From Cyanobacteria bacterium auto_48_18 (GTDB lineage Bacteria; Cyanobacteriota; Vampirovibrionia; Obscuribacterales; Obscuribacteraceae), in the NCBI GenBank assembly GCA_036170915.1, contig JAVHQC010000010.1:169423-233422 (forward strand): a stretch of 64,000 bases of DNA, in the 5' to 3' direction. Positions within the stretch are counted from its first letter, which is position 1; each line of letters opens with the position of its first letter. The notes beneath the pieces were generated by a model, which was not told the origin of the DNA, made no database searches, and saw nothing but the letters and a program-made list of their open reading frames with translations. Positions 12,019 through 60,751 of this stretch are shown here, in pieces. The position numbers were made by a program, and so were the translations under genes.

Positions 12019-12047
12019 AGACGGTTATTCGTCGATTAAAGTTCAAA
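12019..12047 (-). promoter_or_regulatory. Recurrent motif copy 1 (TTTGAACTTTAAT-N11-CGTCT), upstream of higBA
   Basis: Plus strand AGACG-gttattcgtcg-ATTAAAGTTCAAA. Confidence 0.7.
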
Positions 12048-12462
12048 TCACGAGTAAAAACGAACTCTGCAATATGCGCGCCAATGCAGGAAAACGCTAG
12101 ACCTTAGAGGTATTCGACAACCTGAGACTAGGATACCCTGCGATAGGAATGAGCTGGCTGTACTTAACTCCAGCACTGGTTTCGGTGAAGTGTTCGACCA
12201 ATTGAGCAAGCTCTCCAGCGGCAAAGTGGCTTTCAGAAGAAGCGACCTTCTGCAAATCGACACTACCTGGATTATTCTTGCCAACGTGCGCCGTCATCTC
12301 ACTGGTGGCTGCAGCCGTTGCCTTAAACGCTTGCGGTCTACTAGTTCTCTGCTTTCCCACTTAGACATTACCTGGACTGGAATACCATTCGGATTTCAAG
12401 AATACCCGACAGCTGCGGCAAAAGTACAGCAATGTATTGGTAGACGCAAATATACGTTGAAC

Positions 12463-13494
12463 TTACCGAGTAGCCGACTCCATCACCGAACGGACAAACT
12501 TTCTCGGAATTTCCATGTGCCCTTCGTTTGTTGGTTTAAATAAAACGCCCTGCTTGTCGCCTCGCTTCTCCCCCTTATAGGCGGCCAGTTCGCGGGCTAC
12601 AAACTTAGCTTGTTCCATGCTCTGTCCATGGGTGCTGCTGCCAAAGATGTTCTGAAATTTCTTTTCACCGCTGGCGAGATCGGCGATGTTGCTTTTGATC
12701 CAGCCATTAAAACCGTGCGTGTCATACAGAGAGTCTAGAAGTGTGACGCTATTGACCTTTTTGGACAATTCAGGGTTAGCGGCTAACTGACTTTTGGTAG
12801 GAATGAAGCCAGCCGAATGAGAAATTAAGCCAATGTGACGAACGTCAGCCAAGGTTTTTCCTTTCAGCTCTGGTGTCTTATCGAAAACATCTTGCACCAT
12901 TTTTGTGGCGAAATCTTTGGAAGCATATGCGCCCTGTTGATTGCCACTCGCTTTCTGCCCGCCTGGATTGACTTGCCACTCAGGGACAATTAGCACCGTA
13001 TTTGGTGGTGCAGCTTTCATCTGTTCTTGCAAGTTTGCATTGCGAAATGAACTAGAAGCGGTATCACGCCATCCGTGATTATAGATCACCAGATTGATTG
13101 GTTTAGTAGCATCGAAATTCTTAGGCAATAGCACCACAGCGTCGGCAGATTTGCCTCCATGCACACTATGCTTTAAGTTGAGTTCGTACTTTTTGGCTTC
13201 AAAATTAGAAGTGATAGGGGCGACAGGTTCTTTTCGCTCTACTCTCGAATCGGCCGGAGTAAGCTTCTTTCCATTATCTTCAATGGTCACCCGAGGAAGA
13301 TGCCGCTCGGCCGAGTTAGGCGTGAGCGCCTCGAAGCCATTAGGCTCGAACTTTTTGACTCGGTCAAACTCTTTATGAACGCCAGATAGCGGGTTATTCC
13401 TCATCACGTTATCAAAAAGTTGCTCCTCCGCGCGAGAAACCTTTTTGGGGTCGGCAGGTTGTTCGCGCCATTCGGCGGCTCTTTGACCGGTCAT
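12463..13494 (-). CDS. Alpha/beta-hydrolase-fold protein
   Basis: IYNHGW, ISHSAG nucleophile-like motif, LLDSLY, C-terminal His (GHMEIP). Confidence 0.65.
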   Translation of the reverse strand: MTGQRAAEWREQPADPKKVSRAEEQLFDNVMRNNPLSGVHKEFDRVKKFEPNGFEALTPNSAERHLPRVTIEDNGKKLTPADSRVERKEPVAPITSNFEAKKYELNLKHSVHGGKSADAVVLLPKNFDATKPINLVIYNHGWRDTASSSFRNANLQEQMKAAPPNTVLIVPEWQVNPGGQKASGNQQGAYASKDFATKMVQDVFDKTPELKGKTLADVRHIGLISHSAGFIPTKSQLAANPELSKKVNSVTLLDSLYDTHGFNGWIKSNIADLASGEKKFQNIFGSSTHGQSMEQAKFVARELAAYKGEKRGDKQGVLFKPTNEGHMEIPRKFVRSVMESATR

Positions 13495-13585
13495 GCTACA
13501 CCTGGTGTACGGACCTGATGCCTGGTAATTTGCTACTATCTCTCAAGCAGCATACTTCGCAAGTAGTAAAGGATTTGTAAACGGA

Positions 13586-14317
13586 ATGAGCAAATTAGAC
13601 AGAATCGCTCTGGTCACCGGCGGTAATAAAGGAATTGGCTTTGAGGTCGCCAAACAGTTGAGCCAGACCGGCTGTACAGTTGTTTTGACGTCTCGCAATC
13701 GCGAGCAGGGAGAAAGCGCCGTTGCCAGACTCAAAAGTGACGGCGGTGATGTTTATTACTCACAGCTTGATGTATGCGCTCCAAACACAATTGCCGCCAC
13801 TTACAAATTTATCGAATTAAAATTTGGTCGCCTTGATATTCTCGTCAATAACGCCGGCATTATTGAAAGCACTGATGGGCCAGCTTCAGCTGCATCGATG
13901 GACGCAATCGAAAAAACATTGAAGACAAATTTTCTTGGCCCAATTCAAGTAACTCAAACTCTGCTTCCACTTTTGAAAAAATCGAAGCACGCTTCGATAG
14001 TCAATGTTTCAAGTGGGCTCGGCTCTTTGACACTGAATGGCGACGAAAAACATATGTGTTCGCAGGTTCCATATGTTGGCTATTGCGCGTCGAAAGCTGC
14101 GCTGAATATGTTCACGGTGAAGCTGGCTTTTGAGTTGAAAGACACACATATTAAAGTCAATTCTGCCGACCCCGGATATACAGCAACAGACTTGAACAAT
14201 AATCAAGGATATCAATCAATCGAGGAAGGCGCCGCGGAGACTGTTAGGCTGGCTTTAATAGAGGAACATGGTCCTACTGGAACTTACTCTGATAAAGAAG
14301 CAGTTTTGCCCTGGTAA
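13586..14317 (+). CDS. SDR oxidoreductase (carbonyl reductase-like)
   Basis: TGGNKGIG, NNAG, YCASK, DPGYTATDLN. Confidence 0.95.
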   Translation: MSKLDRIALVTGGNKGIGFEVAKQLSQTGCTVVLTSRNREQGESAVARLKSDGGDVYYSQLDVCAPNTIAATYKFIELKFGRLDILVNNAGIIESTDGPASAASMDAIEKTLKTNFLGPIQVTQTLLPLLKKSKHASIVNVSSGLGSLTLNGDEKHMCSQVPYVGYCASKAALNMFTVKLAFELKDTHIKVNSADPGYTATDLNNNQGYQSIEEGAAETVRLALIEEHGPTGTYSDKEAVLPW

Positions 14318-14351
14318 ACAGCCGATTACGCGTCGTACCGGAGGAACATAT

Positions 14352-20760: not shown

Positions 20761-21420
20761 ATGGAAGAAATGAATAAGCAAATTTCTACAATCGTCGTCT
20801 TGGCAATTTTTGCGCTCACCAGTTGTGCCGAAATTTCACAATTTCGTTTCGAGCCACCAAAGGAAGTGCTCGAGGATAAGACACCTGAGCAGTACTACCG
20901 AATGGGCAGGAATTACAAAGATGCAGGGTGGCCTGAGCAGGCCAGGGAATGCCTGACTCGTGCCATAAAGGCTGACGAAAATGGCGAAGTTGGTAAAAAA
21001 GCAAAAATATACCTCAAAGCATATTTGCCGCGTGAGCCAATTTCGCAGACTGCAATTAGTCGAAATATCACTGCGTTTAATCAAGCGGCGAGCGGCAGCG
21101 AAGATGAAGCTATCGCCGGATATCAGGCATGCATTAAAGACTATCCAACTTTCGAATGGCCATACGGAAATCTTGCCGCACTTTACACTAAAGCTGGCAG
21201 GTATAAAGACGCTCAGGCTACAGTGCAGAAAGCACTGACTTTGAATCCAAATTATTTAAATGGGTGGCTTCATCTGGCAAGAGCCTTAGCAGCTGATAGA
21301 GACAGGGCAGGCGCGATTCGCTGCACGAAGCGAGCACTTGAAATAGACCCAGATTCCACCGCAGCTACCGAGCTCATGAAGTCGTTGATGCATCACCACA
21401 CAGACAGACAACTGCAGTAG
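20761..21420 (+). CDS. TPR lipoprotein (paralog of 23364..24008)
   Basis: Lipobox LTSC; TPRs FEWPYGNLA, NPNYLNGW. Confidence 0.85.
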   Translation: MEEMNKQISTIVVLAIFALTSCAEISQFRFEPPKEVLEDKTPEQYYRMGRNYKDAGWPEQARECLTRAIKADENGEVGKKAKIYLKAYLPREPISQTAISRNITAFNQAASGSEDEAIAGYQACIKDYPTFEWPYGNLAALYTKAGRYKDAQATVQKALTLNPNYLNGWLHLARALAADRDRAGAIRCTKRALEIDPDSTAATELMKSLMHHHTDRQLQ

Positions 21421-21544
21421 TGGTGGAATTAATGAATTCCAACGGTGGCAATCAGGCTTTAATCAATTAAGCAATGACTGCGCAAATAAATCAATCAGGT
21501 GTTAATCAAACCTCTCAAAAGAACCACGAATGATTTCTTCCTGT

Positions 21545-21952
21545 CTAGACATGCCTCAGCGCCTTCAGCTCAGTGCTTAGCCGCGCCAAATAGTTGCGAA
21601 GTTCTTGCTCGCTGGCACGGCAATCGTGAATGTCTTTGACACATTGTGCCGGTGTCGCAATTTCGAAATCAATGTCTGAAATAATCGAGTCGATCATTGT
21701 GCTCTCTTGAGTCTTTAATAGTTCTTGTGCCAGTTCTGATGCCCTGGTAGACGGAACTTCGTCAAAGATAACGGCATACAGGGCAATGGCGAGCGTATTT
21801 GGTTTCAAAGTCAATTTGATAACGTCACTTTGGTGAAAAACAGTTATAAGCTTACCGCACTTAAAACCGCTCCTCAAATGGAAGGTTAGCAGCGGCCGTG
21901 GCTGGGTCATGGTGCAAAAGCGGACCGAGTTAGCCCCGGTCCGCTTGTTCAT
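21545..21952 (-). CDS. Hypothetical protein (true start probably further downstream)
   Basis: ORF with a plausible helical C-terminal ~85 aa; no recognised motif. Confidence 0.45.
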   Translation of the reverse strand: MNKRTGANSVRFCTMTQPRPLLTFHLRSGFKCGKLITVFHQSDVIKLTLKPNTLAIALYAVIFDEVPSTRASELAQELLKTQESTMIDSIISDIDFEIATPAQCVKDIHDCRASEQELRNYLARLSTELKALRHV

Positions 21953-21972
21953 TCAAAACCACATCGGTTTCG

Positions 21973-22437
21973 TTATTTCATGTTCGACATCTTTTCACAA
22001 CTTTCGACGCACTTGCGACACTCAGCGGCGCAGTCTTTCATTTGTTTGTCATCGCCAAAAGATTCACAGCTTTCGGCGCAGAGCTTGCATATGTCAGCGC
22101 AAAAACCGCACGATTTTGCATGGTTTGCTGAATTGCGAGAAAGAAATTCGGCGCTCATTTTACATGCAGCAATGCAGTCTCTAAGCGTATCTAGATGCTT
22201 ATTTTCTGCATGTTTGCCGCCTTTCTTTCGACAATATGCCAAGGTTTTCTCGCACACTTTTTGGCACTTGCGGCACACAGCCTCACAGGATTCCATACTG
22301 GGCATTGTTGCATTTTGAGTGTTTGTGCCTGTTTGAGCACTTATGCTGGTATTGCTCGAAAATGCAAAACATCCCAAAATCAACATGAATAGAACAACGA
22401 TTTTTTTCACAACTATTTCCTTGATGAAGTAGGCCAT
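21973..22437 (-). CDS. Cys-rich four-helix-bundle copper-binding protein (Csp/DUF326-like), exported
   Basis: Repeated CxxxC and CxxC helices (CEAVCRKCQKVC, CADICKLCAESC, CAAECRKCVESC). Confidence 0.9.
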   Translation of the reverse strand: MAYFIKEIVVKKIVVLFMLILGCFAFSSNTSISAQTGTNTQNATMPSMESCEAVCRKCQKVCEKTLAYCRKKGGKHAENKHLDTLRDCIAACKMSAEFLSRNSANHAKSCGFCADICKLCAESCESFGDDKQMKDCAAECRKCVESCEKMSNMK

Positions 22438-22582
22438 AAAGAGAACTTATGCTGCCAAAAGTTCCCTTGAATTTAAAAATAAAGATGCCTAGGTGGCGCT
22501 CGACGCGACTAGTATTGATAAGTTCCCGATTACAAAGTCTTCAGAACATGGTAAAGAAGCCAGGTGGCTCAAGCACAGTAAC

Positions 22583-23023: not shown

Positions 23024-23100
23024 TTTGCATCCACTGAAGAATTGGGCGTCATTGCTGACAGACAAAACTTTCTCTGCTCTTGGTACAAAACCATCATTTC

Positions 23101-24062: not shown

Positions 24063-24566
24063 TTATTTTAGCGCAGCGTTCTTCAATGCCTCGCGAACCT
24101 TTGCAGTCCAAACTTCCATAGAAGATTTCACTTCTGGATCTGATTGTAAGAGGTAAAGAATGAACTGAGCCTGAATGGCTTGATCCCGACTTTCATCACT
24201 AAGAGACTGTTCTTGAACGAGCATGCGTTTCACCGGGTCTACATGATCGTATCTAGCATATTTCGTCCCAAGATCCTTACAATCAGACCAGGCCAATTGG
24301 GAGTTATTAAGATGACTGTTGTTTTTTTGCGCACGAACAAATTCTGCAAGAACCTCATTGATCTTTGTTTGATAGCCAGGTCCCATAGACTTAAAGAAAC
24401 GTACAACCTCAGGATCAAGTCTTATCGAAACAGTTTGCTTCCCAGTCCTAGAAGAACCTACAGACACATTTTCAATCGTGCCAGCATCAAAGCCAATGTC
24501 GTCATCATCTGAAATCTCAGCACCGCTGTCCTGTTGCAATTTTAGTTTCTTCCAATTTGTAGCCAT
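24063..24566 (-). CDS. brnA: BrnA-family antitoxin with C-terminal extension
   Basis: KQTVSIRLDPEVVRFFKSMGPGYQTKINEVL. Confidence 0.88.
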   Translation of the reverse strand: MATNWKKLKLQQDSGAEISDDDDIGFDAGTIENVSVGSSRTGKQTVSIRLDPEVVRFFKSMGPGYQTKINEVLAEFVRAQKNNSHLNNSQLAWSDCKDLGTKYARYDHVDPVKRMLVQEQSLSDESRDQAIQAQFILYLLQSDPEVKSSMEVWTAKVREALKNAALK

Positions 24567-24580
24567 ATCACTCGAGTCCT

Positions 24581-24808
24581 TAACTATTCTTTTTTGCGTG
24601 CCACAGTTTACGATCTGCCAGACTTGAAACGAAGGCCGAGATTATTCTTGTAACATCACCGCCGCGTCTTACCGTAAAAATGACTGAGACATTGACACCC
24701 TCAATGCAAACAAGACGCTTTGTACGAATCTCATCGTCCACGACTTGATCAATATCTATGAAATCAAACTCGTCAAACCAATCTATAACATCGTTAAAAT
24801 CGATGTCG
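24581..24808 (-). pseudogene. brnT: 5'-truncated BrnT toxin
   Basis: My translation DIDFNDVIDWFDE...DEIR...VIFTVRRGGDVTRIISAF...DRKLW; N-terminus missing; directly upstream of brnA. Confidence 0.75.
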
Positions 24809-25480
24809 GAAATGAACGGTTATCTCTAATGAACCACCTAACTTCTCGATGTAATCTCTCAAAGTGCTGATGTACATATCAGTACGCTGCTCTATTTTTG
24901 AAATTTCGCGCTGCTGAACCTGCAACTTCTCCGCTAAAGCTCGTTGTGAACATTTCAAAGCTTTGCGCAATTCTTGCAAACCCATTTCTTCGGCCAGCAT
25001 TTCAGCTGCGCGAGCATCAATCTTGCTACGCCTTTCGGGAGACAACTTTTGAAGATAATCATTGAGATTCTTTTTCATGCAGAGCATATCAATCGATAGC
25101 TTTCTATTTAAAGCTTGTGCGATTTTGTTCAACATGGTGAGTGAATGCCCTTCGTAGTCGGCGTCTTCAAGGCGGCTTATCACTGACTGGGTAGTGCCAA
25201 TCATTTCGGCAAGCTGCTTCTGAGTTAGGCCCGCATCTTCACGGTAATCAAAAATGAGACGCGCAATTTTGACGTTAACACGCTCTTTATCAAGCGCAGC
25301 CTCACGTTCAGACGAGCCCGCAATGAACTTTTTATGCAGGACCTTCACGGCATTTGATTGTTTGTTGTTATTACTCATTTTGCTCAATATATGTATGCTT
25401 GGTTGGAGATTTTTCAAATAGAGGAACGGGCTCGATCCATCGCTATTAGCAAATAAGACGACCTCCGTTCTGGGCATCAT
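24794..25480 (-). CDS. Chimeric ORF: RelE-like toxin N-terminal stub + XRE HTH antitoxin + second HigA-like antitoxin
   Basis: MPRTEVVLFANSDGSSPFL stub after AAGGAGG; HTH core duplicated from 22730-23005; then MKKNLNDYL...TDMYISTLRDYIEKLGGSLEI. Confidence 0.75.
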   Translation of the reverse strand: MMPRTEVVLFANSDGSSPFLYLKNLQPSIHILSKMSNNNKQSNAVKVLHKKFIAGSSEREAALDKERVNVKIARLIFDYREDAGLTQKQLAEMIGTTQSVISRLEDADYEGHSLTMLNKIAQALNRKLSIDMLCMKKNLNDYLQKLSPERRSKIDARAAEMLAEEMGLQELRKALKCSQRALAEKLQVQQREISKIEQRTDMYISTLRDYIEKLGGSLEITVHFRHRF

Positions 25481-25587
25481 CCCTCCTTTCAGCATATCGC
25501 AAAATTGCTATCTTCACAACCACCGAAGGCCACTCAATTAGAAACACCCACAGGCCACAGTAACACCACCATGCATTGCTTTCTTAT

Positions 25588-25616
25588 AGACGTCGAAATA
25601 TCGATTAAAGTTCAAA
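25588..25616 (-). promoter_or_regulatory. Recurrent motif copy 2, upstream of the chimeric TA cluster
   Basis: AGACG-tcgaaatatcg-ATTAAAGTTCAAA. Confidence 0.7.
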
Positions 25617-26112: not shown

Positions 26113-26469
26113 CTAGCTTTTTGTTGCCTTAGGTACAGACGAAACTTTCTTCTGTACTAAAATCTTTTCCAAGCGATCGAATCGCGAATTAATTACTGCC
26201 ACTATATCTTCACCTAATTTTGTCATTTCATTACCGGAATGACTATCCTCTTCGGCGAGGCGCTCCAGCACCCACTCCCGTGCCATGGTACCGACCGGTT
26301 TCTTCACGAGACTGGCACGATCATAAAGCTTTTGAACGCTCTCTTCGTCAATTCGAAATTGCACAATTCCCGTCTTCGCAACTTCTGCTCGCGCCTGTAA
26401 AAGTGTTTGTCGCTTTCGCTTTGAAAGTTCCCCTGGTGTCATTTTCGACATCGTCATCAACTTATCCAA
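26113..26469 (-). CDS. Ribbon-helix-helix/CopG-like DNA-binding protein; possible orphan antitoxin
   Basis: IVQFRIDEESVQKLYDRA..PVGTMAREWVLERL; own TTGACA-N17-TACATT promoter at ~26494-26522. Confidence 0.6.
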   Translation of the reverse strand: MDKLMTMSKMTPGELSKRKRQTLLQARAEVAKTGIVQFRIDEESVQKLYDRASLVKKPVGTMAREWVLERLAEEDSHSGNEMTKLGEDIVAVINSRFDRLEKILVQKKVSSVPKATKS

Positions 26470-26589
26470 TCCATCTCTTCTAGGAACCCCTACAATGTAT
26501 TACAAATGTCACACATTGTCAAGATCGGCTACCGACCGCGTTCGGAGAATGCAAGTCAGCTTTGCCGCCAGATGACAGTCACTTCTCTT

Positions 26590-26618
26590 AGACGGCAAAT
26601 CCACAATTAAAGTTCAAA
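26590..26618 (-). promoter_or_regulatory. Recurrent motif copy 3, upstream of the RHH gene
   Basis: AGACG-gcaaatccaca-ATTAAAGTTCAAA. Confidence 0.7.
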
Positions 26619-50151: not shown

Positions 50152-50616
50152 ATGGAATCAAGCAGCGATAGCGTCACAATTTCGCTCAATAATGACCCTT
50201 TTGAGTGCGGAGCATCTTTTCGCATTTATGACGGTTCTCAAAACATTGTTTTTGATATCGAAGAGATTAGCGAGAAACTCAATCTCAAACCGACAATGGC
50301 GCATCTGAGAGGACCTAAGCCTCACAATAAGAACCATGTTTATGGAAGCAGCGCATGGCTTTTACATTCGGAAAAATCGGTCAAATCAAGTGAGCCCGGC
50401 AGGCACCTTTCGTGGATTCTAGATCAAATCGCACACGCACACAGTGCCATTAGGGAGTTCAAAATTCGTGGTTTTAAAGTAGAAATCTGGCTGACAATTA
50501 GAATAGGACATTGGAACACGCTAGCTGTTCTTTCGCCAGAAATCATTGCTGCACTTCAACACTTCGATATCCCCCTGCTCATCGACATCTATGATTACCA
50601 AGATCTTGGAGGCTAG
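50152..50616 (+). CDS. DUF4279-like protein
   Basis: ASFRIY..DIEEISEKLNLKPT..SAWLL..LSPEIIAAL..IDIY pattern. Confidence 0.7.
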   Translation: MESSSDSVTISLNNDPFECGASFRIYDGSQNIVFDIEEISEKLNLKPTMAHLRGPKPHNKNHVYGSSAWLLHSEKSVKSSEPGRHLSWILDQIAHAHSAIREFKIRGFKVEIWLTIRIGHWNTLAVLSPEIIAALQHFDIPLLIDIYDYQDLGG

Positions 50617-50704
50617 ATGTGCGCCATAAAATCGCCTCTCGGCTTTTAAAGCATATGCGGGCTTACTCAAGCTCGCACCGCTTCTGATACCACATACCTT
50701 TGCT

Positions 50705-52711
50705 CTACTTCGGCTCAAAAATTACTTGCCGACCCGGGTAGTCGAAGGTCACGGTCTTAAATCGGCGGAAAAAATGATCACCTAATACAATTTCGCTTGC
50801 CATTGAAGGAGCCTGCTCGGCAGAATACACGTCAAAGTAGGGCGCATCAAAATTAGACTTGCCAAGCTTGATACTCTTCAAGCGAACATGATTGGAGTCC
50901 AATCGTCCTATCCACGGGCCCGCTATGTGACCTTTGAAAATGAACTCTGTTTGAATCGGTTTAAGTAACGAGTCAGGCGAAATATTAAAAGGACCTCCGG
51001 TATCTAAAAGTGCTGATACCACAATGCGATCATCTAAAGTGACGCTGCAATAAGGTTTGTGGTCGCGCACTCTCATAGGCAAGATAATGATCGGGTTTAA
51101 ACCGCTTGGCTTTAACGAGCTAGAGAGAATGACCTTCTTGTTTAAATAATCTACCGTGACAATAAAATTCTCAAGAATATTTCCACCGAGGAAACCGCTC
51201 AAAGACTTGTGTCCAACCAAACCGTCATTAACAGCCATCGATACAGTCGGTAGAGTGACAGTGTCTAATTGAATGCTACGAGCAGTAAAGGAGCCGTAGC
51301 TATATCCTGTTCCATTAGCAGTAGCGCCGCGCAACGGAACATTTTCCAATTTACCAATTTGAGGCATTGCTTGTTTCCACAACTCTGAGTGATTGCAACC
51401 CGTATCAAGCATCAGCTCGAGAGCATGGTCGTTAACGCGCGCTGGAACACAAATATGATTTTGATCATCATAGTGAAACGGCAAGACGACGGACTTACTT
51501 TTGAGTTGCTGATCGATATTGTATTTGGGACTATGTTTGCTGTAATGATGCAAAACCACCATGGGATTACAAAGAGACGAGGAGCGTCGTTCACTTGGCG
51601 TCGCGAACCTATCTGCCTGATACCAGGCACTATCTGCCTGACTGATCTTCTCAAGCATCAGATAGTCTCGTCCGAGATTGACCCAATTGAACTGACTTTC
51701 AGCGTCGATACTCGAGATTTTAGTTCGAAACGGAATGGCTTTGTCATAGAGTCCAAGATCTTCGTAAGAGGCGGCAGTGGTGCAGAGAGCGCATAGTGAA
51801 TTAGCGTTCAGCCCTATCGCCTTACTGCAATCTGCCAATGCATTTTGTAGTTGCCCCAATTGATAATATGCATGGCCACGTTGCTCGTATACTTTTGCTA
51901 GCTGCGGACTGATTTGCACTGCCAACGTCAAATCGTCAATCTGCTTTTGATATTGACCAAGGTCACGGTAAGCATCCGCGCGTAACAAATATCCTTGAGG
52001 GGATTGAGGATTAAGCTTAATGGCAGCAGTATAGTCCTCCACCGCCTTGTGAAACTCACCGAGACGAAGGTAGATGAAACCCCGTTCGATAAAAGGCCCA
52101 GACTGCTTTGAGGTCAGGCTCAAAGCTTTGTTGCAGTCTTGTAGAGCTTCTTGATACTTCTTTAAGTGCCTCAAGGCCGTCGCTCGGAACAAATAATATC
52201 TCATGACCTTTGGTTCTAAGGCAATCGCTTTGTTGCACTCCTCGACGTCTTTGTCATAATTTTCTAGGCGCTCATACACCAGGGCCCGCATGCCATAAGG
52301 ATCGGCCAACTTTGGGTCTAAGGCGATCGCTTTATCGCTATCAGCAAGCGCATCCTGATAGCGTTTGACCAAGATATAAATTGCCGCCCTGGTGCAATAT
52401 GCGAGGGCAAATTTTGGGTCAAGAGCTATTGCTGCATGACTGTCAGCAAGCGCCTCGTCATATTTTTCAAGCTTGCCATATGCGAACGAGCGTTCTCGAT
52501 AAGCTTGCGCGTATTTAGGATTTTTTTTGATCAAGGTGTTCAGAGAATCAAGCGCAGCTTGGTCTCGATTTTGACTCAGTAAACCTTGGGCGTTCTCTAG
52601 CAGCTCAGATGGCGTAGGCGGGAAAGGACCGAGTCGGTACATCCACGCAAAAATAACGATTGAGGCAATGAGCACAGCTGCGATTAGTAAGTGGATTTTA
52701 AAACGCACCAA
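50705..52711 (-). CDS. TPR protein with two C-terminal retropepsin-like aspartyl protease domains
   Basis: About ten TPRs; LMLDTG, GFLGGNIL, ALLDTG, IVLGDHFF. Confidence 0.9.
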   Translation of the reverse strand: MVRFKIHLLIAAVLIASIVIFAWMYRLGPFPPTPSELLENAQGLLSQNRDQAALDSLNTLIKKNPKYAQAYRERSFAYGKLEKYDEALADSHAAIALDPKFALAYCTRAAIYILVKRYQDALADSDKAIALDPKLADPYGMRALVYERLENYDKDVEECNKAIALEPKVMRYYLFRATALRHLKKYQEALQDCNKALSLTSKQSGPFIERGFIYLRLGEFHKAVEDYTAAIKLNPQSPQGYLLRADAYRDLGQYQKQIDDLTLAVQISPQLAKVYEQRGHAYYQLGQLQNALADCSKAIGLNANSLCALCTTAASYEDLGLYDKAIPFRTKISSIDAESQFNWVNLGRDYLMLEKISQADSAWYQADRFATPSERRSSSLCNPMVVLHHYSKHSPKYNIDQQLKSKSVVLPFHYDDQNHICVPARVNDHALELMLDTGCNHSELWKQAMPQIGKLENVPLRGATANGTGYSYGSFTARSIQLDTVTLPTVSMAVNDGLVGHKSLSGFLGGNILENFIVTVDYLNKKVILSSSLKPSGLNPIIILPMRVRDHKPYCSVTLDDRIVVSALLDTGGPFNISPDSLLKPIQTEFIFKGHIAGPWIGRLDSNHVRLKSIKLGKSNFDAPYFDVYSAEQAPSMASEIVLGDHFFRRFKTVTFDYPGRQVIFEPK

Positions 52712-52802
52712 GACTCACCTTGTCAGTTGCCACAGTTTTGATGTCATTGGTTAGCACGAAAAATTGGCTCATTAACACCGAAACAACGACGAGTAGCAAC
52801 CG

Positions 52803-53237
52803 CTACATCTGCTGAGACTCTGCTGAAACGCCACCATCGCAGGTATAGTCGAAAGCAAACGCTACATTGATTGTTTCTGGAGCACCTGGCGGCAGGGGCC
52901 GAAATGGCGCTGCATTCTCCACCGCTTTCATCGCTGCATTATCTACAATTGCCAAACCACAAGATTGCTGTAGTTTCAAGTTACTCAGGCTTCCATCTCG
53001 TGAAACGATGAAAACAAGTCTTACTTTTTTGCTTTCAGTTCCTTTTGGAGGAAACCAAGCTCTTTTAATACGCTTGCATAAGTCTGCCATATACAGCTTA
53101 TGAACAATCTCTTTCGACAAAGTAATTGGGGGTTTGGCTGAGGGTTCAGCTGAAATTGGCAAAGAACAGCAGAGCCCGCAGAGCACTGTCAATGCAGAAA
53201 CTCTTGCCGTTTGCCAAACTAGATTTTTGACCTTCAT
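52803..53237 (-). CDS. TonB/TolA C-terminal domain protein
   Basis: RIKRAWFPP, SCGLAIVDNAAMKAVENAAPFRPLP. Confidence 0.88.
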   Translation of the reverse strand: MKVKNLVWQTARVSALTVLCGLCCSLPISAEPSAKPPITLSKEIVHKLYMADLCKRIKRAWFPPKGTESKKVRLVFIVSRDGSLSNLKLQQSCGLAIVDNAAMKAVENAAPFRPLPPGAPETINVAFAFDYTCDGGVSAESQQM

Positions 53238-53249
53238 CGAAATAACCTC

Positions 53250-54293
53250 TTATTCATCCGCACTATATGTGGTGCTAAACGCTTGAAGTAATGGGAACAT
53301 TGCTAGCAGACCAATTAGACTTAAAATGCCAAACATGGAGCAAAACAATGAGGCCATTTGCAGGTCAGACAGAGCTCCGACAATATCACCCATCAAAAAG
53401 CGCACATCAGCCCTATGCCTGGCAGCCCACCTGTCAGAAGGGTCGATGTTCAGCGCCTGGTCAAAGTCTGCGAGCGCGCTTTTCATATCGCCCATTTCTA
53501 AATGCAACAGGCCTCGATTGCCATAGGCCATACCAAATTGATTATCAAGCTTAAGGGCCATATTATAATCTTCTAGCGCTGCCGCTTTGTTCCTGTCGGC
53601 TAACCATGTGGCTCTTACGTTGTAACTCGACGAAGAAGTTGGACTAATCTTGATGGCTCGATTAAAATCATTCATAGCTAAATCGTAGTGTCCAGAAAAC
53701 GCAAGCGCTCGACCGCGAATGATATAAGACCAGGTGTCCTTCGGGGAAAGGCGAATCGCGATATCACAATCCGACACCGCTTCTCGAAACTTTTCAAGCT
53801 CAAGATAAATCTCCGCGCGCTTGCGGAAATCGTAAAAAAGATGCTGGCTTGGGGATTTGCTTTTAATAGCAATCACGCGACTTAAATCATCAATGGCCCC
53901 GGCCTTGTCAGACAATTTCAGTTTGGTATTCGCTCGCGAGTGAAGATCGAATGTGTCCTCAGGAGTTCGTTTTAAAACTTCGTTGTAGTCCAGTAGCGCA
54001 CTTTTGTAATCGCCTAAATCGAAATAATTGTCACCTCTACAAGAGATTGCTGTGACCAAGCTCGGGTCAAGCCTGATTGCCTCAGAGTAGTCCTGTACAG
54101 CATGGCGATAATCGCGGCACCCAGTCCAAAAATCGCCCCGGCGGGCCCAGTCATATGCGGTCTTTTGCGCAAGAGGCAGTTCTGTAGACTGCGGATTGTG
54201 AGGCCCACATGAATGAGTAGCCCAGGCAGCAGCAAATGAGCTGAGCGCCACGGCCGTTATCAAAACTGCAATTCTGGTGTGAAGGGTCGGCAT
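53250..54293 (-). CDS. TPR protein
   Basis: Repeated A..DY..AI.L.P and AYGNRG units. Confidence 0.92.
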   Translation of the reverse strand: MPTLHTRIAVLITAVALSSFAAAWATHSCGPHNPQSTELPLAQKTAYDWARRGDFWTGCRDYRHAVQDYSEAIRLDPSLVTAISCRGDNYFDLGDYKSALLDYNEVLKRTPEDTFDLHSRANTKLKLSDKAGAIDDLSRVIAIKSKSPSQHLFYDFRKRAEIYLELEKFREAVSDCDIAIRLSPKDTWSYIIRGRALAFSGHYDLAMNDFNRAIKISPTSSSSYNVRATWLADRNKAAALEDYNMALKLDNQFGMAYGNRGLLHLEMGDMKSALADFDQALNIDPSDRWAARHRADVRFLMGDIVGALSDLQMASLFCSMFGILSLIGLLAMFPLLQAFSTTYSADE

Positions 54294-54460
54294 TCTATGA
54301 TCATACCCACTGAAGACCGCAGTGGTAATGGTGATTACCTCACTGCGCGGAGGGTCAATTCGTCCCGGACGTTCTCCTGGTTATAGCCATGGTGCATTGT
54401 AATTTCGGTGAAACGGCCCAGATGCATCTAGAATAGACGCATACCAATCGGAGCCATGGC

Positions 54461-55804
54461 TTGCCTGAACTGTCCTCTACCGCCAACGAGACGAAACCAA
54501 TACCGCCACTGCCCATACGCTTTTTGGTCTGGACCGCAGTTGCTTGGTATCCAATCTTATGGTTGTTCATTCTATGTGCTGTAACCATTCCTGCGCTTAA
54601 CGAACAAGATATACGGCCCTTGGTTTCAACAATGATCACGGGCGGAGCTTGTTCGATTGTGGTTTTGTTTGCGGCTTGCTTCTATGCGAGCCACTGGTTC
54701 AGAAAAAGATCGCCAATCATCATTTTGTCGTGGGTGATCATGATGTTCAGCTGCTTTACGACGGAAGGCGCACTTACAAATGCAATCATTAACGCAAACC
54801 ACAGCGTCCACGAACAGTTGGTGCGACTCAGAGAACCATCAATAGCCGAGGTGCCGGTCAGCAGTAACAACTCAACGGCTGGTTTATGGGGATACATTGA
54901 TCGCACTGGAGCATTTGTCCTACAACCTCAATGGGTGGAAGCAGGAAACTTTTGCAGCAGTGAGGCAAAAGTTTTAAAAGATGGTACTCGGTATTACATT
55001 GACCGCAATGGCAAAACCGTCCCGGAGCATAAACTCTCCGCTTGCGCATGCGGTGATGAGGACAGAGTGATCAAGTTCGAGAAAGATATTTTTGATGCAA
55101 GTGGACACAAATTGATTGCCGCCAAGGGAAAAAACATCACTGTTTATAAGTTCTCGGATGGCATGGCTCTATTTTCTATGCCGATGCGCATGATACAGCG
55201 CTATTATCCTGAGCACTTTTTTGAGTATCGAGTCATGATACCGATGACGAAAGAAGAAATTGAGCCGTCAAAAAAATGGGGTCAATATGGTTACATAGAT
55301 ACGCGGGGCCGAATAATAATCGAGCCAAAGTACTATCGCGCCGAATCTTTTAAAAATGGCCTGGCGAAAGTACCACTCGATACGGCGCACGGTGGGCTTC
55401 AGAGCGGCTTTATAGATAAAAATGATCAACCACTTACAGGTGCGCTCTTCTCAGAAGTAGAGCCTTTTACAGAAGGAATTTCAGTTGTAAAAAAATTGAA
55501 CGGCATGCAGTGTCTAATAGATCGCTCTGGTCGATTAATCGCAGACAACTTACAAGATGCAAAAAATATTTCTAACGGATCGATTGTTGTGAAGCAGTTC
55601 TTCAATTGGTTTCTTATGGACACAGCAGGGAATCTACTAAAGCGGCTCGACTACGATGATATTGAGTATTTTCACGAGGGCTTAGCCGTGGTAGCGAAAG
55701 GAAACACGAAAGGCTACATTGATACAGCTGGCGAGCTGGTTATTCCTCTGAAATTCATGGACGCCAGCCGCTTTTCTAAAGGTTTGGCTGCCGTCCAAAA
55801 CTAA
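54461..55804 (+). CDS. Membrane-anchored WG-repeat protein
   Basis: Three TM helices, then WGYIDRTG, YGYIDTRG, FHEGLAVV, KGYIDTAG repeats. Confidence 0.88.
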   Translation: MPELSSTANETKPIPPLPIRFLVWTAVAWYPILWLFILCAVTIPALNEQDIRPLVSTMITGGACSIVVLFAACFYASHWFRKRSPIIILSWVIMMFSCFTTEGALTNAIINANHSVHEQLVRLREPSIAEVPVSSNNSTAGLWGYIDRTGAFVLQPQWVEAGNFCSSEAKVLKDGTRYYIDRNGKTVPEHKLSACACGDEDRVIKFEKDIFDASGHKLIAAKGKNITVYKFSDGMALFSMPMRMIQRYYPEHFFEYRVMIPMTKEEIEPSKKWGQYGYIDTRGRIIIEPKYYRAESFKNGLAKVPLDTAHGGLQSGFIDKNDQPLTGALFSEVEPFTEGISVVKKLNGMQCLIDRSGRLIADNLQDAKNISNGSIVVKQFFNWFLMDTAGNLLKRLDYDDIEYFHEGLAVVAKGNTKGYIDTAGELVIPLKFMDASRFSKGLAAVQN

Positions 55805-55889
55805 CCACACCGGAAAGTAAGTAATCGCCCCAGCATATCTGCGCCGTGCACTGGTTGTAGTTACGCTTGAGAAAATCACTACCAGACAT

Positions 55890-55929
55890 CATGGCAATCT
55901 TTGACAGTTATTGCCATGGCTCATAGAAT
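55890..55929 (+). promoter_or_regulatory. parD sigma70 promoter with operator inverted repeat
   Basis: TTGACA-N17-TAGAAT; CATGGCAAT...ATTGCCATG flanks the -35; same at 59889-59927. Confidence 0.85.
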
Positions 55930-55956
55930 TGGTTTAGCGGAAAGAGGTACTTGCTG

Positions 55957-56217
55957 ATGACTATGAATGTATCGTTGACACCTGAATTAGAAGGCTTTGT
56001 CACTGAAAAGGTCAAATCAGGGCTCTACAATTCTGCCAGCGAAGTTATAAGAGAAAGCCTAAGACTGTTGCGCCGTCAGGACGAGCTGGAACAACTTCAA
56101 TTGGCTCAACTAAGACGAGAAGTACAAGCCAGTATCAAGCAAATGGACGCTGGCAAAGGCATTCCACTTGCGACGGTTCGAGAAAATATCCAGCAACGCC
56201 GAAGTAAAAAGCGCTAA
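55957..56217 (+). CDS. parD: ParD-family RHH antitoxin, orphan copy
   Basis: MNVSLTPELEGFV..KVKSGLYNSASEVIRESLRLL. Confidence 0.92.
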   Translation: MTMNVSLTPELEGFVTEKVKSGLYNSASEVIRESLRLLRRQDELEQLQLAQLRREVQASIKQMDAGKGIPLATVRENIQQRRSKKR

Positions 56218-56502
56218 GAGGTGCAGCTGTTCGTGCGCTTACGTCGATGCCAAAGAATTTCACCAAGGCCTGGCCGTCGTAAAGCCCGGTAAAGAGTGGT
56301 GATAAAGGGTCGGTGATTGCCGCCGGGGTGAAGGCCTAGGCAAACTGTTTTTAAGGCTTCACCAGAATATAAAGACAGCACCAGCTGCGATACCACTAAT
56401 ATTCTACCGACCAGGACAGAAACTCAAGGGCATAATAATTCGCGACGCGAAAAATTTATGTTAGCCACGAACGCATGCAAATGTTCAACCTTTGCAGGAC
56501 GC

Positions 56503-56703
56503 CTATCGGGCAGTTTCCTCACCCTTTAAGGGGAGCCATGGACTTTGACAAGGCCGTCCAACTTCTAGCGCTATCTGACTAGCTAAATGCTGAAGTTTTA
56601 TGAGCATCTTAACCTTCTCTTCTGGAGATAATGATGCTAATCCCTGACGGCGGTCGAATTTTCGCCGATAAATAGCTTCTTTAGTGGTAAGGCTTTCGTT
56701 CAT
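56503..56703 (-). CDS. Small helical partner of the nucleotidyltransferase
   Basis: RRQGLASLSPEEKVKMLIKLQ; ATGA overlap with the upstream gene. Confidence 0.7.
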   Translation of the reverse strand: MNESLTTKEAIYRRKFDRRQGLASLSPEEKVKMLIKLQHLASQIALEVGRPCQSPWLPLKGEETAR

Positions 56704-57236
56704 GTTGTCATCTTACGCCATTTGTCTTCCAAGCAGTGCCGTTTAAGAATTTCGGTCAACTTTGACTCATCAGCGGGCTTAGAGTCTAATGATACCTGCA
56801 AACGCGCACGGTCTTTCGGTCGCCCAGTCTCTGCCATAATCGCCAGCAGATGCTCATATTGGAAAACTCGGGTAGGTACACCCGCAAAGGTTCTTTCGAC
56901 TGCACCATCAAGCGCCTCATCAACGAGAGAGCCCGTCGATGGTAAAAACTGAACAGGAACTCCTTCGATTTTAATATGTTCTGATTCAGCTTTATAGCCC
57001 CGCGCCGAAGTCCATTCAAAAAGTGGCTGCAAGTTTATCAGCAGCCCCTGTGAGGGTAAATGACAGAAAATATCTAAATCAAAGGTCAATGTAGGTTCGG
57101 TGTAAAACAACAGCGCCACCGCTCCACCAATGGCATAGCGTCCAATGATACCGCCCTGCTCAAGCTCATTTATTACTCGCAAGGCCTTATCCAGAACAAA
57201 ATCGTTTGAGTCAGAACTTTCACAAGATTCCGGCAT
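56700..57236 (-). CDS. DNA pol-beta superfamily nucleotidyltransferase
   Basis: YAIGGAVA, TFDLDIF, GRPKDRAR. Confidence 0.8.
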   Translation of the reverse strand: MPESCESSDSNDFVLDKALRVINELEQGGIIGRYAIGGAVALLFYTEPTLTFDLDIFCHLPSQGLLINLQPLFEWTSARGYKAESEHIKIEGVPVQFLPSTGSLVDEALDGAVERTFAGVPTRVFQYEHLLAIMAETGRPKDRARLQVSLDSKPADESKLTEILKRHCLEDKWRKMTT

Positions 57237-57495
57237 CTTCCACCCATTTATCACTAACTCGTAGAATATATTAACAAGTGTATCCACACTCACAGTCTTT
57301 AAGGGATCGACGAATGATCGTTAGCCATGTTTACCACTTCCTTTCCTGGGTGTGTACTGTTCTCCCCCCAGTAGCCTACTGTGCCATATTTTGGCAATTA
57401 ATTCGCTTCGAAAACTTTGCTAGAACTCGGATAAAATAACCCATGGTAGATTCATCTCGGCCCAAATGACACGACAGAAAAGTCGATTCTTTTTT

Positions 57496-58167
57496 TTATT
57501 CCCACTCGCAGCGCGGTGGATTGCATCTAAAGCGCAAATATTTCTTCTGACCGGGACGCTTTGCATAAAAACCCCACTGGCCGCAAATCTGGCTATTAAA
57601 TAAGTCCTCGGCGCTCTCACATTGCAAAAGATTTTTTTCCACAGCACGAACCAGAAACTGACAAGTCCTTACTATTTGCAGCTGAGGGCACAGGGCCTTA
57701 ACTAGCTCAACTCCGGCCTGGTCATCAATAAGTAGACTCCACTGACGAGAAATCGCAACAGCAATTGTCTCTGCCTCGCCAGGATCTAGACCCGTTAAAC
57801 GTTTACTGCCAGGACAACTCCTCCAAATATTTCCATTTCTATACGATAAGGCTAAGCGTTCTTCATCTGCGGTCAGGGCCACACTTCTCCAAAGAGTTTC
57901 ACGCCCAGCAATGAATGTTTCTAGCGGCAATTCTGCATTCTTATACTTACTATTCTGCTGTTGTCTAGCTACAAATAATGGCCTCAAGATTTCGGACTGC
58001 GGTTGTTCCAGTAGGAATTCAGCACCGAGTGGCTCCTCCGGATCGAGAACCACCGGTGTCAAATACACAGGCGCACGCAATGCCTTTTGAAGAAGAACTG
58101 CATTTCCAGTAAATACAAAATTGCTCAAAAAGCTTGTATCAGCTAGACACGGTATTGTGATCACCAT
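57496..58167 (-). CDS. PIN-domain protein (putative toxin)
   Basis: ADTSFLSNF, LDPGEAETIAVA, LLIDDQAG acidic tetrad. Confidence 0.8.
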   Translation of the reverse strand: MVITIPCLADTSFLSNFVFTGNAVLLQKALRAPVYLTPVVLDPEEPLGAEFLLEQPQSEILRPLFVARQQQNSKYKNAELPLETFIAGRETLWRSVALTADEERLALSYRNGNIWRSCPGSKRLTGLDPGEAETIAVAISRQWSLLIDDQAGVELVKALCPQLQIVRTCQFLVRAVEKNLLQCESAEDLFNSQICGQWGFYAKRPGQKKYLRFRCNPPRCEWE

Positions 58168-58168
58168 C

Positions 58169-59356
58169 TTAGCTACCGTAGGTTTTTGAAAACTCGCGGG
58201 ATTCTTTTAACTCGCTCGCGTCGGCATTTTGCGGGCCTTCGAGAAGCTCATTTTGGATGGTCATGGCATCAAGCCGCAAAAGCGAGGCTGCCTGCCCGAC
58301 AGACAATACATCATCTTCGATCAGCTCTCGGACACGTTTTAAAATTGATGCAGGATATCTAGACAAATACGGTGCATCATCGATGCGATTTTGAAACATC
58401 ACAGAGTCGAGTCCTATGTTTTTGGCCAAAGAACGAGGACTAAGCTTTTGCCAGTTATCTCGTTGCTCTAAATTGATATGTCGATCGAAATGTAATCGAT
58501 TAAGCATAAATGCGTAGCTAACCTTGAAATAACTTGCCAGCTGTAAGGCATCATATTCGGTGATGCAATTAAGCAATCCTAAGGCTTCAATAAATTGCTT
58601 GAGGCCCTTACTTGGCACGAGCAAGTTTGCAGCGAAGGCATCTGCAAACTGTTCACGAGATGAGGTTTCTCCCGAGATGCTCACGATACATTCGTTGGCA
58701 CCATAATGAAAAAGTGCGTGACCAAATTCGTGTGCCAGAGTAAACATCTGCCGTCCGTGAGAAGTCTGTGCATTAATCAGAATGCAATATCCTAATACTG
58801 GATGATTGTAAAAGGCACCAGAAATACCTTCGGCACTTATATCACCAAGGGAAGCTTTGCACACTAAAATATTTTGCTCATCAAGGAATGCGAATAAATC
58901 GGGAAGCGCGAAGTTACCCAATTCATAGAATTCGCGCACCTCGGCGCTTACTTTAGTAACGCTACGAATATCAGAAAAATCCGGGCCGCGATCGATTCTC
59001 TTTGGCGGTTGTTTCTGCATCCTCTTAGAAGGATCGGCGAGCTTAGTCCATTGATCTAAAAATGACAGCCAGTGATTGACCTCCATTTGAATAGCCGGAT
59101 CTTTAGATTCGATACCACGAAGTAGAACTTTGGCTTTACTAACATCTCCTTGAGTCTCAGATTTTTCGCCAAGCAATAGTTCAACTTCGGTGTTGAAGAG
59201 CTGTGCAATGTCCTCAAGCTGTTTCAGATTCGGACGTCTCGACCCGTTTTCCCACATTGAAATAAGCTCGCGCGGAACTTTGAGCGCAACTGCAACCTGA
59301 TGTTGGGTCCAGTCGCGGTCTTTCCTATATTTCTGCAAGCAATTACTCAAATTCAT
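58169..59356 (-). CDS. XRE HTH + ImmA/IrrE (M78) metallopeptidase
   Basis: WTQHQVA..ISMWENGSRRP; RQMFTLAHEFGH; EQFADAFAANLLVP. Confidence 0.93.
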   Translation of the reverse strand: MNLSNCLQKYRKDRDWTQHQVAVALKVPRELISMWENGSRRPNLKQLEDIAQLFNTEVELLLGEKSETQGDVSKAKVLLRGIESKDPAIQMEVNHWLSFLDQWTKLADPSKRMQKQPPKRIDRGPDFSDIRSVTKVSAEVREFYELGNFALPDLFAFLDEQNILVCKASLGDISAEGISGAFYNHPVLGYCILINAQTSHGRQMFTLAHEFGHALFHYGANECIVSISGETSSREQFADAFAANLLVPSKGLKQFIEALGLLNCITEYDALQLASYFKVSYAFMLNRLHFDRHINLEQRDNWQKLSPRSLAKNIGLDSVMFQNRIDDAPYLSRYPASILKRVRELIEDDVLSVGQAASLLRLDAMTIQNELLEGPQNADASELKESREFSKTYGS

Positions 59357-59693
59357 AAAGAACTCTCCAACAAATTACGACTTCACCAAACCCAATCGAG
59401 ACGTTCCGCGTATGGATTGTATATCAAAATCACGTAAATGGTCAATAGATGAAGTATTTAGCGGAAAGTGTTACCAAAATATCTTACATTCTGGCATGAA
59501 GGTGTTACATTCAATTAGAGGGTATCAAGCCAGTCGGGCCAAGCCAAACATGACTTATGTTCTAGTCGATGCCACTAAACATAAATCAGGCAAATAGTGC
59601 GCGCAATTAAGCGGCACAGGGCTTAGGTGCAAACTGCCACTTAATTGTTTACTCTTCACTTATTGCTCGAGGTAACTTGTTTACGAAAAAGAG

Positions 59694-59728
59694 AAAAAGC
59701 ACCGGCACTAATTGGCTGGTGCTTTTTT
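59694..59728 (+). terminator. Intrinsic terminator-like hairpin in an intergenic region
   Basis: AAAAAGCACCGGC-actaattg-GCTGGTGCTTTTTT. Confidence 0.7.
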
Positions 59729-59954
59729 GTGCGGTGTTTAGAGCAAGGAGGGCAATTGACTCGTACCAATGCTCAAGGAAAATATCTCCAATTGGCAGGA
59801 AACAAGCCAAAGCAAGTAATCGTCGCAGCATATCTGCGCTGTGCAACTGGTTGTAGTTGCGCTTAAGAAAATCACTACCAGCTAACTTATGGCAATCTTT
59901 GACAATTATTGCCATGGTTTATAGAATTGGTTTAGTGGAAAGAGGTACTTGCTC

Positions 59955-60215
59955 ATGACTATGAATGTATCGTTGACACCTGAATTGGAGGGCTTTGTCA
60001 CTGAAAAGGTCAAATCAGGGCTCTACAATTCTGCCAGCGAAGTTATAAGAGAAAGCCTAAGACTGTTGCGCCGTCAGGACGAGCTGGAACAACTTCAATT
60101 GGCTCAACTAAGACGAGAAGTACAAGCCAGTATCAAGCAAATGGACGCTGGCAAAGGCATTCCACTTGCGACGGTTCGCAAAAACATCCAGCAACGCCGA
60201 AGCAAAAAGCGCTAA
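59955..60215 (+). CDS. parD: ParD-family RHH antitoxin, copy 2
   Basis: As copy 1. Confidence 0.92.
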   Translation: MTMNVSLTPELEGFVTEKVKSGLYNSASEVIRESLRLLRRQDELEQLQLAQLRREVQASIKQMDAGKGIPLATVRKNIQQRRSKKR

Positions 60216-60254
60216 GAGGCGCAGCTTTAGTCATCGCTTCAATGATCTATCCCC

Positions 60255-60581
60255 TCAGGATAGGTCATCTTTTATTGATGCGATATCGCGGGAAGTGTGC
60301 CACACTCTCAGGATTTCCACTTTGTTGACGTTAATGCGATAGTAAATTGCATACTTGCCGGAAGTAACGGAGCGCACACCAGGCACAATTTCCTCCCTAG
60401 CTCTGCCTGCTCTGGGCATATGCGCCAGATCTTCGCAGCGGGCCACAATCTGGTCTATGAGCGTCTCGGCGGTGCTGAAATCAGCTTCCTCAGCTATATA
60501 GGCCTCAATTAGATCAAGGTTCTTTTCGGCATCAGGAGATAATTCTATTTCTAGTTTTTGTTGTTTTTCGGTATCTGACAT
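60255..60581 (-). CDS. parE: ParE/RelE-family toxin, convergent with parD
   Basis: LSPDAEKNLDLI..YIA, MPRAGRAREE, YAIYYR, VEILRVWHTSRD. Confidence 0.9.
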   Translation of the reverse strand: MSDTEKQQKLEIELSPDAEKNLDLIEAYIAEEADFSTAETLIDQIVARCEDLAHMPRAGRAREEIVPGVRSVTSGKYAIYYRINVNKVEILRVWHTSRDIASIKDDLS

Positions 60582-60722
60582 TTTCTAATCCAGTTGAGGT
60601 TGAGGCAGAGAGCAGTAGCTGCCAGGCTCAAGCATCTGAATGTCATACATTGCCAAGATCGCAGGACTGCCTTGTCGAGAAAGCAACCGCATTGGCATTG
60701 ATAAAACATTCGTTTCAATTAA

Positions 60723-60751
60723 AGACGTAATACGCGGAATTAAAGTTCAAA
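60723..60751 (-). promoter_or_regulatory. Recurrent motif copy 4, upstream of parE
   Basis: AGACG-taatacgcgga-ATTAAAGTTCAAA. Confidence 0.7.

Follow-up and report, generated by a model that had tools for sequence, protein, structure and literature searches.

In a 64,000-nucleotide stretch of the Obscuribacteraceae genome Cyanobacteria bacterium auto_48_18 (GCA_036170915.1, contig JAVHQC010000010.1, positions 169,423 to 233,422; the window), a 29-base motif stands in four copies upstream of toxin–antitoxin (TA) genes, and it is very probably a promoter of the extracytoplasmic function (ECF) type. Taken as a whole, the evidence is best explained, with fairly good confidence, by a family-specific ECF sigma factor that would govern a competence regulon, one sub-lineage of its promoters having settled in the leaders of TA modules. 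The source genome (G000; genomes, contigs and loci are given below as G, C and L numbers) comprises 4.94 Mb in 39 contigs and is 86% complete.

The motif, AGACG-N11-ATTAAAGTTCAAA, had been picked out in a sequence-only reading of the window at 12019, 25588, 26590 and 60723, and all four are exact plus-strand matches; the distances given there to the minus-strand starts of higB, a chimeric TA cluster, an antitoxin-like gene and parE (121, 108, 121 and 142 nt) agree with the list of open reading frames (ORFs). The window contains no further match at up to two mismatches (0.01 matches expected; four reached in 0 of 100 shuffles), and these four are the only perfect copies in the whole genome, where five additional copies with one or two mismatches all keep the 11-nt spacer and none with a 10- or 12-nt spacer was found at up to two mismatches. 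Neither the Rfam scan nor the tRNA scan gave a match in the window. The 18 fixed bases are identical in the window copies as claimed, but across the genome invariance is confined to the GAACT arm and CGT, TTAAT and the final two motif bases being variable at the other sites. Read on the minus strand, the four copies belong, as a single variant, to a promoter found throughout the genome, WTTGAACTW(T-rich)-N-CGTHW, which has the bipartite -35 (AAC) and -10 (CGT) elements and the rigid spacing of ECF promoters: TGAACTTT-N14-CGT occurs at 34 genome sites against 0–4 at each of 17 other spacings. On a scoring matrix trained on 28 sites, all outside the window, 44 genome sites reach a score of at least 18, against 1–9 with the spacer shifted by 1–3 nt, and the window copies score 22.0–23.8. 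Genome sites are mostly intergenic and gene-facing, at a median of 31 nt upstream, and the TA copies lie 92–141 nt upstream. The worry that the 13-bp arm is longer than a -35 element needs is answered by reading the arm as the -35 plus a T-rich tract, a feature that follows the -35 in many ECF promoters (PMC5758882).

A probable sigma factor for this promoter was found. Among the 12 genes of the sigma-70 family in G000, the site precedes only one, an ECF gene at C23:45711-46352, and none of the other 11; it lies 51 nt before the ORF and, with a score of 30.0, is the second-best in the genome, having itself belonged to the training set. Behind the sigma gene come a zf-HC2 anti-sigma gene, whose product has one predicted membrane helix, and then a Spy/LTXXQ-type gene, and the nearest solved structure to the sigma is Bacillus subtilis SigW (E 3e-25). 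The pattern of an autoregulated sigma is kept in relatives, with the site upstream of 27 of the 30 best-scoring orthologues (34 found; shifted controls 0–5). A full-length orthologue (at least 43% identity) is present in 34 of 37 family genomes vs 0 of 24 outside it, and a loose form of the motif gave 817 hits against 65 for the reversed control in the 37 family genomes, and 19 against 63 in the 24 outside genomes. Motif and sigma thus coincide in distribution, both occurring only in Obscuribacteraceae among the genomes searched, and this family boundary is sharp, though kin are not independent. The C23 ECF is the probable sigma reading the motif, and the proposal that an ECF-type promoter lies upstream of the modules' own promoters is well supported. 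As to a named ECF group, the main text of PMC7826278 does not mention Melainabacteria, and a group whose promoter logo matches may be found in its supplements; no promoter consensus for cyanobacterial SigG was found in the literature.

The genes immediately downstream of the sites (identities from Pfam/NCBIfam) include comEC, comF, comM (YifB), yraN, radA (then uvrC), radC and recA, together with recJ, priA, xseA, dnaE and a 5'-nucleotidase gene. DNA import and processing genes of a competence regulon (comEC, comF, comM, recA, radA) are therefore among the targets, and comEC, comF, comM and yraN bear the site at four separate loci. In relatives, the site is found at 26 of 29 comEC orthologues at a score of at least 12 and at 23 at a score of at least 16 (controls 0–3; 30 loci of 59 matches, one without upstream DNA; G000's own comEC site belonged to the training set), and at 24 of 30 comM orthologues at the lower threshold and 21 at the higher (controls 0–7; 30 loci of 57 matches). 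ComM-YraN and RadA are D-loop factors of transformation and ComM-YraN is a transformation-dedicated pair (PMC13663708). The site also precedes nine Zn-ribbon/DprA winged-helix (WH) paralogues (6 Pfam-confirmed), five DUF6088/AbiEi-like genes (3 scanned) and envelope-type targets, namely a TolC-exporter operon, two LTXXQ proteins, a DUF1800 protein and several secreted unknowns. It is probable, judging from gene content, that this is a competence-type regulon read by an ECF sigma, in which TA modules would be recurrent minority members. A literature search on ECF or competence regulons in Melainabacteria/Obscuribacterales and on ECF-driven TA systems, whose reach mostly stopped short of subscription papers, returned nothing on this group.

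Two expanded families stand out among the targets. The Zn-ribbon/DprA-WH protein is ~350 aa long, and all nine G000 paralogues carry the promoter (L025, L026, L031, L033, L035, L049 and three more); an atlas search with it returned only Melainabacteria clusters without a name at 0.94–0.95, leads of the IS1595 type staying below 0.9, and the family appears to be limited to Melainabacteria and nameless. The orphan DUF6088/AbiEi-like genes of G000 lie at C15:59451, C22:31146, C22:109896, C25:106000 and C35:228941, and no AbiEii-like partner was evident by inspection directly downstream of orphan DUF6088 genes. This family is expanded, with 34 matches in G023, and the promoter is present at 23 of 30 loci (L478-L507).

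How closely the promoter is tied to TA modules was judged from the toxin side and from the motif side. The sequence-only reading had proposed an alternative-sigma regulon that co-induces TA modules; the ECF promoter stands, but the regulon is one of DNA uptake and recombination plus envelope genes rather than TA-centred. A site with a score of at least 16 lies upstream of 2 of 30 HigB (30 of 192 matches examined), 1 of 6 ParE, 1 of 10 Gp49, 2 of 5 BrnT and 0 of 17 PIN loci, that is, at only 6 of 68 toxin loci, and a TA-specific regulon was rejected on this count. Set against 40 of 4307 G000 ORFs this is an enrichment, but an overstated one because the toxin loci had longer windows (500–800 vs 360 nt), one locus belongs to the window and three were found through the motif. 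From the motif side, TGAACTTTAAK-N11-CGTCT has 25 matches in the family (104 genomes scanned), and its exact TTTAAT...CGTCT variant is TA-linked: the TTTAAT form stands before TA modules or relics in 10 of 10 cases and the TTTAAG form in 2 of 15, TA labels in relatives being mostly assigned by inspection. The other matches lie before radA, radC, comEC, comF, recJ and various genes, or within an ORF, and TTTTT...CGTCT sites in the genus precede a type II TA gene in 0 of 20 cases. Of 13 TA-type sites, 6 have an intact toxin ORF and 7 have one that is truncated or missing; copies 2 and 3 are among the 7, so that deletion has struck two of the four toxins in the window. A search for the exact pattern yielded 49 loci in GTDB genomes, 13 in viral contigs and 91 in metagenome contigs (80 of them listed), mostly unrelated sites, and 56 of the 142 examined are intergenic; TA genes follow only Obscuribacter-type loci, and there is therefore no cross-phylum TA signal. 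In several Nostocales the same 17-base pattern plus GA precedes one conserved membrane-protein gene (L286, L306, L308, L315, L318, L322), probably as a cyanobacterial ECF promoter of the same type.

The four copies appear to share at least part of their history. Four sites drawn from the core matrix would agree at all variable columns with a probability of ~1e-6, and their identity therefore needs common descent or a special constraint. The flanks had been called unrelated, and ungapped flank identity among the four copies is at background level (10–18 of 51); copies 26590 and 60723 nevertheless share homology over 130 nt on their downstream side (local score 44; null maximum 31 among 364 pairs). 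The parE leader of copy 4 is homologous to the copy 3 leader and to BrnT-like modules of relatives (scores 42–46, null maximum 31), homology of the copy 1 leader at 12019 is borderline (29–32), and the copy 2 leader matches the leader of a Gp49 module in G009 (score 30), whose promoter region in turn matches one before a CopG-type antitoxin in G006 at 31 of 51 flank bases (background 15.9 +/- 4.1). Because their leaders are homologous, copies 3 and 4 are not independent, and four independent recruitments were rejected. In six homologous modules from six genomes, the -35 and -10 elements are invariant while spacer and flanks have diverged, and together with the leader homology this indicates that a leader was joined to different TA genes with its -35 and -10 kept, in a region rich in duplications, deletions and chimeric ORFs. 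Elsewhere, L071 (G070), L079 (G118) and L207 (G118 comM) have an identical or near-identical 11-nt spacer before genes unrelated to one another (a TA relic, a gene of 409 aa and comM), hinting at promoter copying or a spacer preference.

Several observations weigh against this explanation. Neither pilB nor two Tad-type ATPase genes nor three pilin-like genes of G000 carry the site, so that an uptake pilus is missing from the targets; G000 dprA lacks it and only 2 of 5 dprA loci have a weak one, and no clear comEA emerged from a PF12836 search. About one quarter of the G000 targets are secreted or envelope proteins, and the sigma operon resembles an envelope-stress operon. Most TA loci are without a site, as is the same Gp49 module in G013. 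Common descent is demonstrated for copies 3 and 4 only, copy 1 being borderline and copy 2 unmatched within the window, and the G006 junction TTTGAATTTTTTTTGATGTCAAG places one end of an indel within the -35 arm of copy 1.

The first of these points lead to the rival that survives best, in which the same promoter and sigma would serve a general envelope and DNA-stress regulon, like that of B. subtilis SigM/SigW, that takes in com genes by chance, with TA induction as ordinary stress coupling and not part of competence. The anti-sigma with its membrane helix, the Spy-like third gene, the TolC-exporter, LTXXQ and DUF1800 targets, the similarity to SigW and the siteless pilus genes all fit such a regulon. 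Against it, comEC, comF, comM and yraN carry the site at four separate loci, two of them encoding the transformation-dedicated pair, and lexA, a separate gene in the genome, is absent from the targets; a general stress regulon seems rather improbable. Still less likely are TA copies that are selectively neutral hitch-hikers, the promoter having once been acquired by a mobile TA module and multiplied through duplication while serving neither host nor module, as H. influenzae authors also considered for toxTA (PMC6957337). The broken or absent toxins and the sparse occupancy of toxin loci would suit drift, but copies 3 and 4 remain identical in 18 of 18 motif bases while their spacers (4 of 11) and downstream bases (4 of 20) have drifted to background, and the same footprint is seen in six genomes.

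A recombination or cassette-insertion site that marks where TA modules are placed, whether instead of a promoter or in addition to it, was the alternative offered in the sequence-only reading, and it is now very improbable. It draws on the contig of the close relative G006, which lacks a 1.8-kb TPR-higBA segment (TPR, tetratricopeptide repeat) with one edge within the TTTGAAC arm, on the module homology between G001/G013 and G010/G008, which starts at the first motif base, and on the near-palindromic TTGAA-C-TTTAA. The other G006 edge, however, has no copy of the arm, the shared 7-mer lying ~60 nt away, and the edge in question is one of 28 alignment ends (paralogous hits included) in an indel-rich region. 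Gain or loss exactly at the motif was thus seen at that one edge, and the edges in G008 and G007 (L006, L007) lie elsewhere: direct repeats of 46 bp at -93..-47 and +697..+743 enclose their BrnT-like module, so that its boundary lies 47 bp upstream of the motif and the motif is internal cargo. No crossover at a fixed base with the core at both module ends was found, the genome-wide sites mostly precede core genes, and no tyrosine recombinase (PF00589) matched on contig C10, which ends at the window end, four matches over the cut-off lying elsewhere in this incomplete genome. In contigs from three DNA runs, one of them possibly the source, no joint was seen at the motif, which is evidence neither way. 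The 46-bp repeats are copies of the 3' end of the TPR gene next to the module. Comparison with the consensus sequences of dif/pdif, attC and the LexA box led to their rejection, the conserved bases being misplaced and lexA not a target.

A second ECF operon on C20 (Spy-like gene, then sigma) has its own promoter, TGAAAC-N16-CGTA, ~680 nt upstream of 165051 (-), so that some overlap with the C23 promoter is possible, and a site resembling it lies at C13:33599. That this C20 ECF or a SigG-like ECF on C35 reads the TTTAAT...CGTCT variant, as the similar C20 promoter and the Nostocales pattern might suggest, is extremely unlikely, since C35-like sigmas also occur beyond the family, in genomes that show no enrichment of the motif, and TTTAAK is also found at radA, priA, comF and radC of the ordinary regulon.

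The features of the window that bear on these modules are collected in the table.

Table. Coordinates of motif copies, TA genes and associated features in the window.
Feature	Position	Strand	Basis or remark
Segment with TPR gene, higA, higB and most of copy 1, absent from syntenic G006 contig	10223..12037		
higA-type helix-turn-helix (HTH) antitoxin	11143..11589	-	HTH_3 E 5e-4 (below cut-off); position after higB
higB toxin, intact ORF	11614..11898	-	PF09907 E 1e-23
Two TCACA-N3-TGTGA inverted repeats, between copy 1 and higB	11926..11985		sequence
Copy 1, ECF-type promoter (predicted), TTTGAACTTTAAT-N11-CGTCT	12019..12047	-	score 23.5, 121 nt before higB
BrnT-like remnant without clear start, then brnA antitoxin (24063-24566)	24063..24819	-	PF14384; BrnT label by eye
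Chimeric ORF: ends of Gp49/RelE-like toxin, middle deleted, in frame with two HTH antitoxins	24794..25495	-	vs intact module G013:C134
Copy 2, ECF-type promoter (predicted)	25588..25616	-	score 22.4
Orphan antitoxin-like gene; BrnT-like toxin gene deleted	26113..26469	-	toxin precedes homologues in G010, G001, G013
Sigma70-type promoter, inverted repeats overlapping	26494..26522	-	kept in relatives
Copy 3, ECF-type promoter (predicted)	26590..26618	-	score 23.8
parD antitoxin (59949-60215) with own sigma70-type promoter (59899-59927), convergent on parE	59899..60215	+	PF03693
parE toxin, intact ORF, same strand without antitoxin	60255..60581	-	PF05016 E 1e-18
Relic of copy-3-type sigma70 -35/operator box, -10 lost	60638..60661	-	
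Copy 4, ECF-type promoter (predicted)	60723..60751	-	score 22.0

Gene labels given earlier for higB, parE and brnA were confirmed by their Pfam families. In the cluster described as chimeric relE/HTH/brnTA, brnA holds good and the ORF at 24794-25495 joins a fragment of a Gp49/RelE-like toxin to two HTH antitoxins, while the supposed ribbon-helix-helix gene behind copy 3 has no Pfam hit above the cut-off, its homologues in relatives sitting behind a BrnT-like gene. At least two of the genes had been credited with a sigma70 promoter of their own closer in; the scan found a single one, at copy 3, none in 11800-12200 and before parE no more than a degraded relic. The inverted repeats ahead of higB are probable HigA operators. 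The convergent parE and parD are separated by 39 bp and are arranged alike in G006, whereas in G007 the two genes form an ordinary parDE operon; at 55814-56228 lies another copy of parD, 94% identical and without parE. Just upstream of copy 1, a 66-aa ORF at 12097-12297 (-) has DNA matches in ~8 genomes of the genus and no Pfam hit. A complete Wadjet-type jetABCD operon at 41399-48169 has no such promoter, and in G009:C165 a Wadjet remnant adjoins two motif-bearing TA modules. The site is also absent from 56503-59356 (-), which holds an HTH-peptidase M78 gene, a 223-aa unknown, a nucleotidyltransferase-like gene and a 66-aa ORF. Many internal duplications and fragments (a TPR pair, an EF-hand pair, WG-repeat pieces, a DUF4379 pair) are found in 20761-30625, 35848-41411 and 49462-62279, and an IS3-type element occupies 62844-63976 at the contig end.

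From the observed motif, spacing, gene content, conservation and co-occurrence we infer transcription, the identity of the sigma, competence and any benefit as follows. The promoter (-35 TGAAC plus an A/T-rich tract, a fixed spacer and -10 CGTH) would be read by the autoregulated, family-specific ECF sigma once its anti-sigma releases it. The freed sigma would transcribe late natural-transformation genes (comEC, comF, comM, yraN, radA, recA, radC) along with recombination and restart genes, the two expanded orphan families and some envelope genes. The window copies would represent one promoter sub-lineage, carried by the 5' leaders of TA modules whose toxin gene comes first, in a variable region full of deletions, where the leader may have been recombined onto different TA genes and selection may hold the -35 and -10 while the spacer drifts. 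The outcome would be added TA transcription from ~90–140 nt upstream of the start codons, outside the modules' own operators, in a competence or stress state.

A bolder and rather doubtful extension is that the TA parts were wired into the competence ECF regulon on purpose, with the leader moved between toxin-first modules, toxins often lost, and orphan antitoxins acting as an antitoxin bank. If so, orphan type II antitoxins and orphan DUF6088 genes would be expressed exactly at DNA uptake, and the bank would protect cells against toxin genes that come in or help to rid them of addictive elements, transformation having been proposed to cure chromosomes of mobile elements (PMC12378983). Retained toxins (HigB, the antisense-arranged ParE) would then be a competence-linked arrest or the module's anti-curing device. 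More generally, the analysis predicts which sigma regulates competence, together with its anti-sigma and ~40 targets, in an uncultured, non-photosynthetic family related to cyanobacteria, for which no such description was found in the literature, and the Zn-ribbon/DprA-WH and orphan DUF6088 families, both expanded and unstudied, would be assigned to this response. The known competence sigmas belong to the ComX/SigH type; control by an autoregulated ECF and its membrane anti-sigma would couple DNA uptake to a signal from outside. The question of why TA systems join competence regulons becomes testable in a heterologous host, given one sigma and four promoters.

Competence is placed under alternative sigmas in other bacteria, namely ComX/SigX in streptococci and SigH in Staphylococcus and Lactobacillus sakei, and Mycoplasma genitalium has the recombination sigma MG428. 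As in these systems, a single alternative sigma appears here to serve dispersed promoters of DNA-uptake and recombination genes. Unlike ComX, SigH and MG428, the candidate is an autoregulated ECF with a zf-HC2 anti-sigma and with both -35 and -10 elements, pilus genes are apparently omitted and envelope genes included, and the role in competence is a prediction. The -35 is TGAACT here, whereas the SigW consensus is TGAAAC, and the targets, unlike those of SigW, are mostly transformation genes. The promoter does resemble those of B. subtilis SigW, SigM, SigX and SigV in the AAC of the -35, the adjoining T-tract, the CGTH -10 and autoregulation (PMC5758882). Competence-controlled TA systems are known from H. 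influenzae toxTA (PMC6957337) and from E. coli hicAB, higBA and chpSB (PMC11951105); according to the former, the toxTA toxin is deleted, with promoter and antitoxin kept, in 142 of 181 strains. Like these Sxy/CRP-S operons, the present modules would place type II TA genes under a competence promoter plus a closer, antitoxin-repressed promoter, and like toxTA they show frequent toxin loss (7 of 13 sites), so that they may be a further independent case of competence-controlled TA with the same pattern of toxin loss. Unlike the Sxy/CRP-S operons, the control element here would be an ECF sigma promoter instead of a CRP-S activator site, in a different phylum, and at least three TA families in one region have a common promoter whose leader has apparently moved between them.

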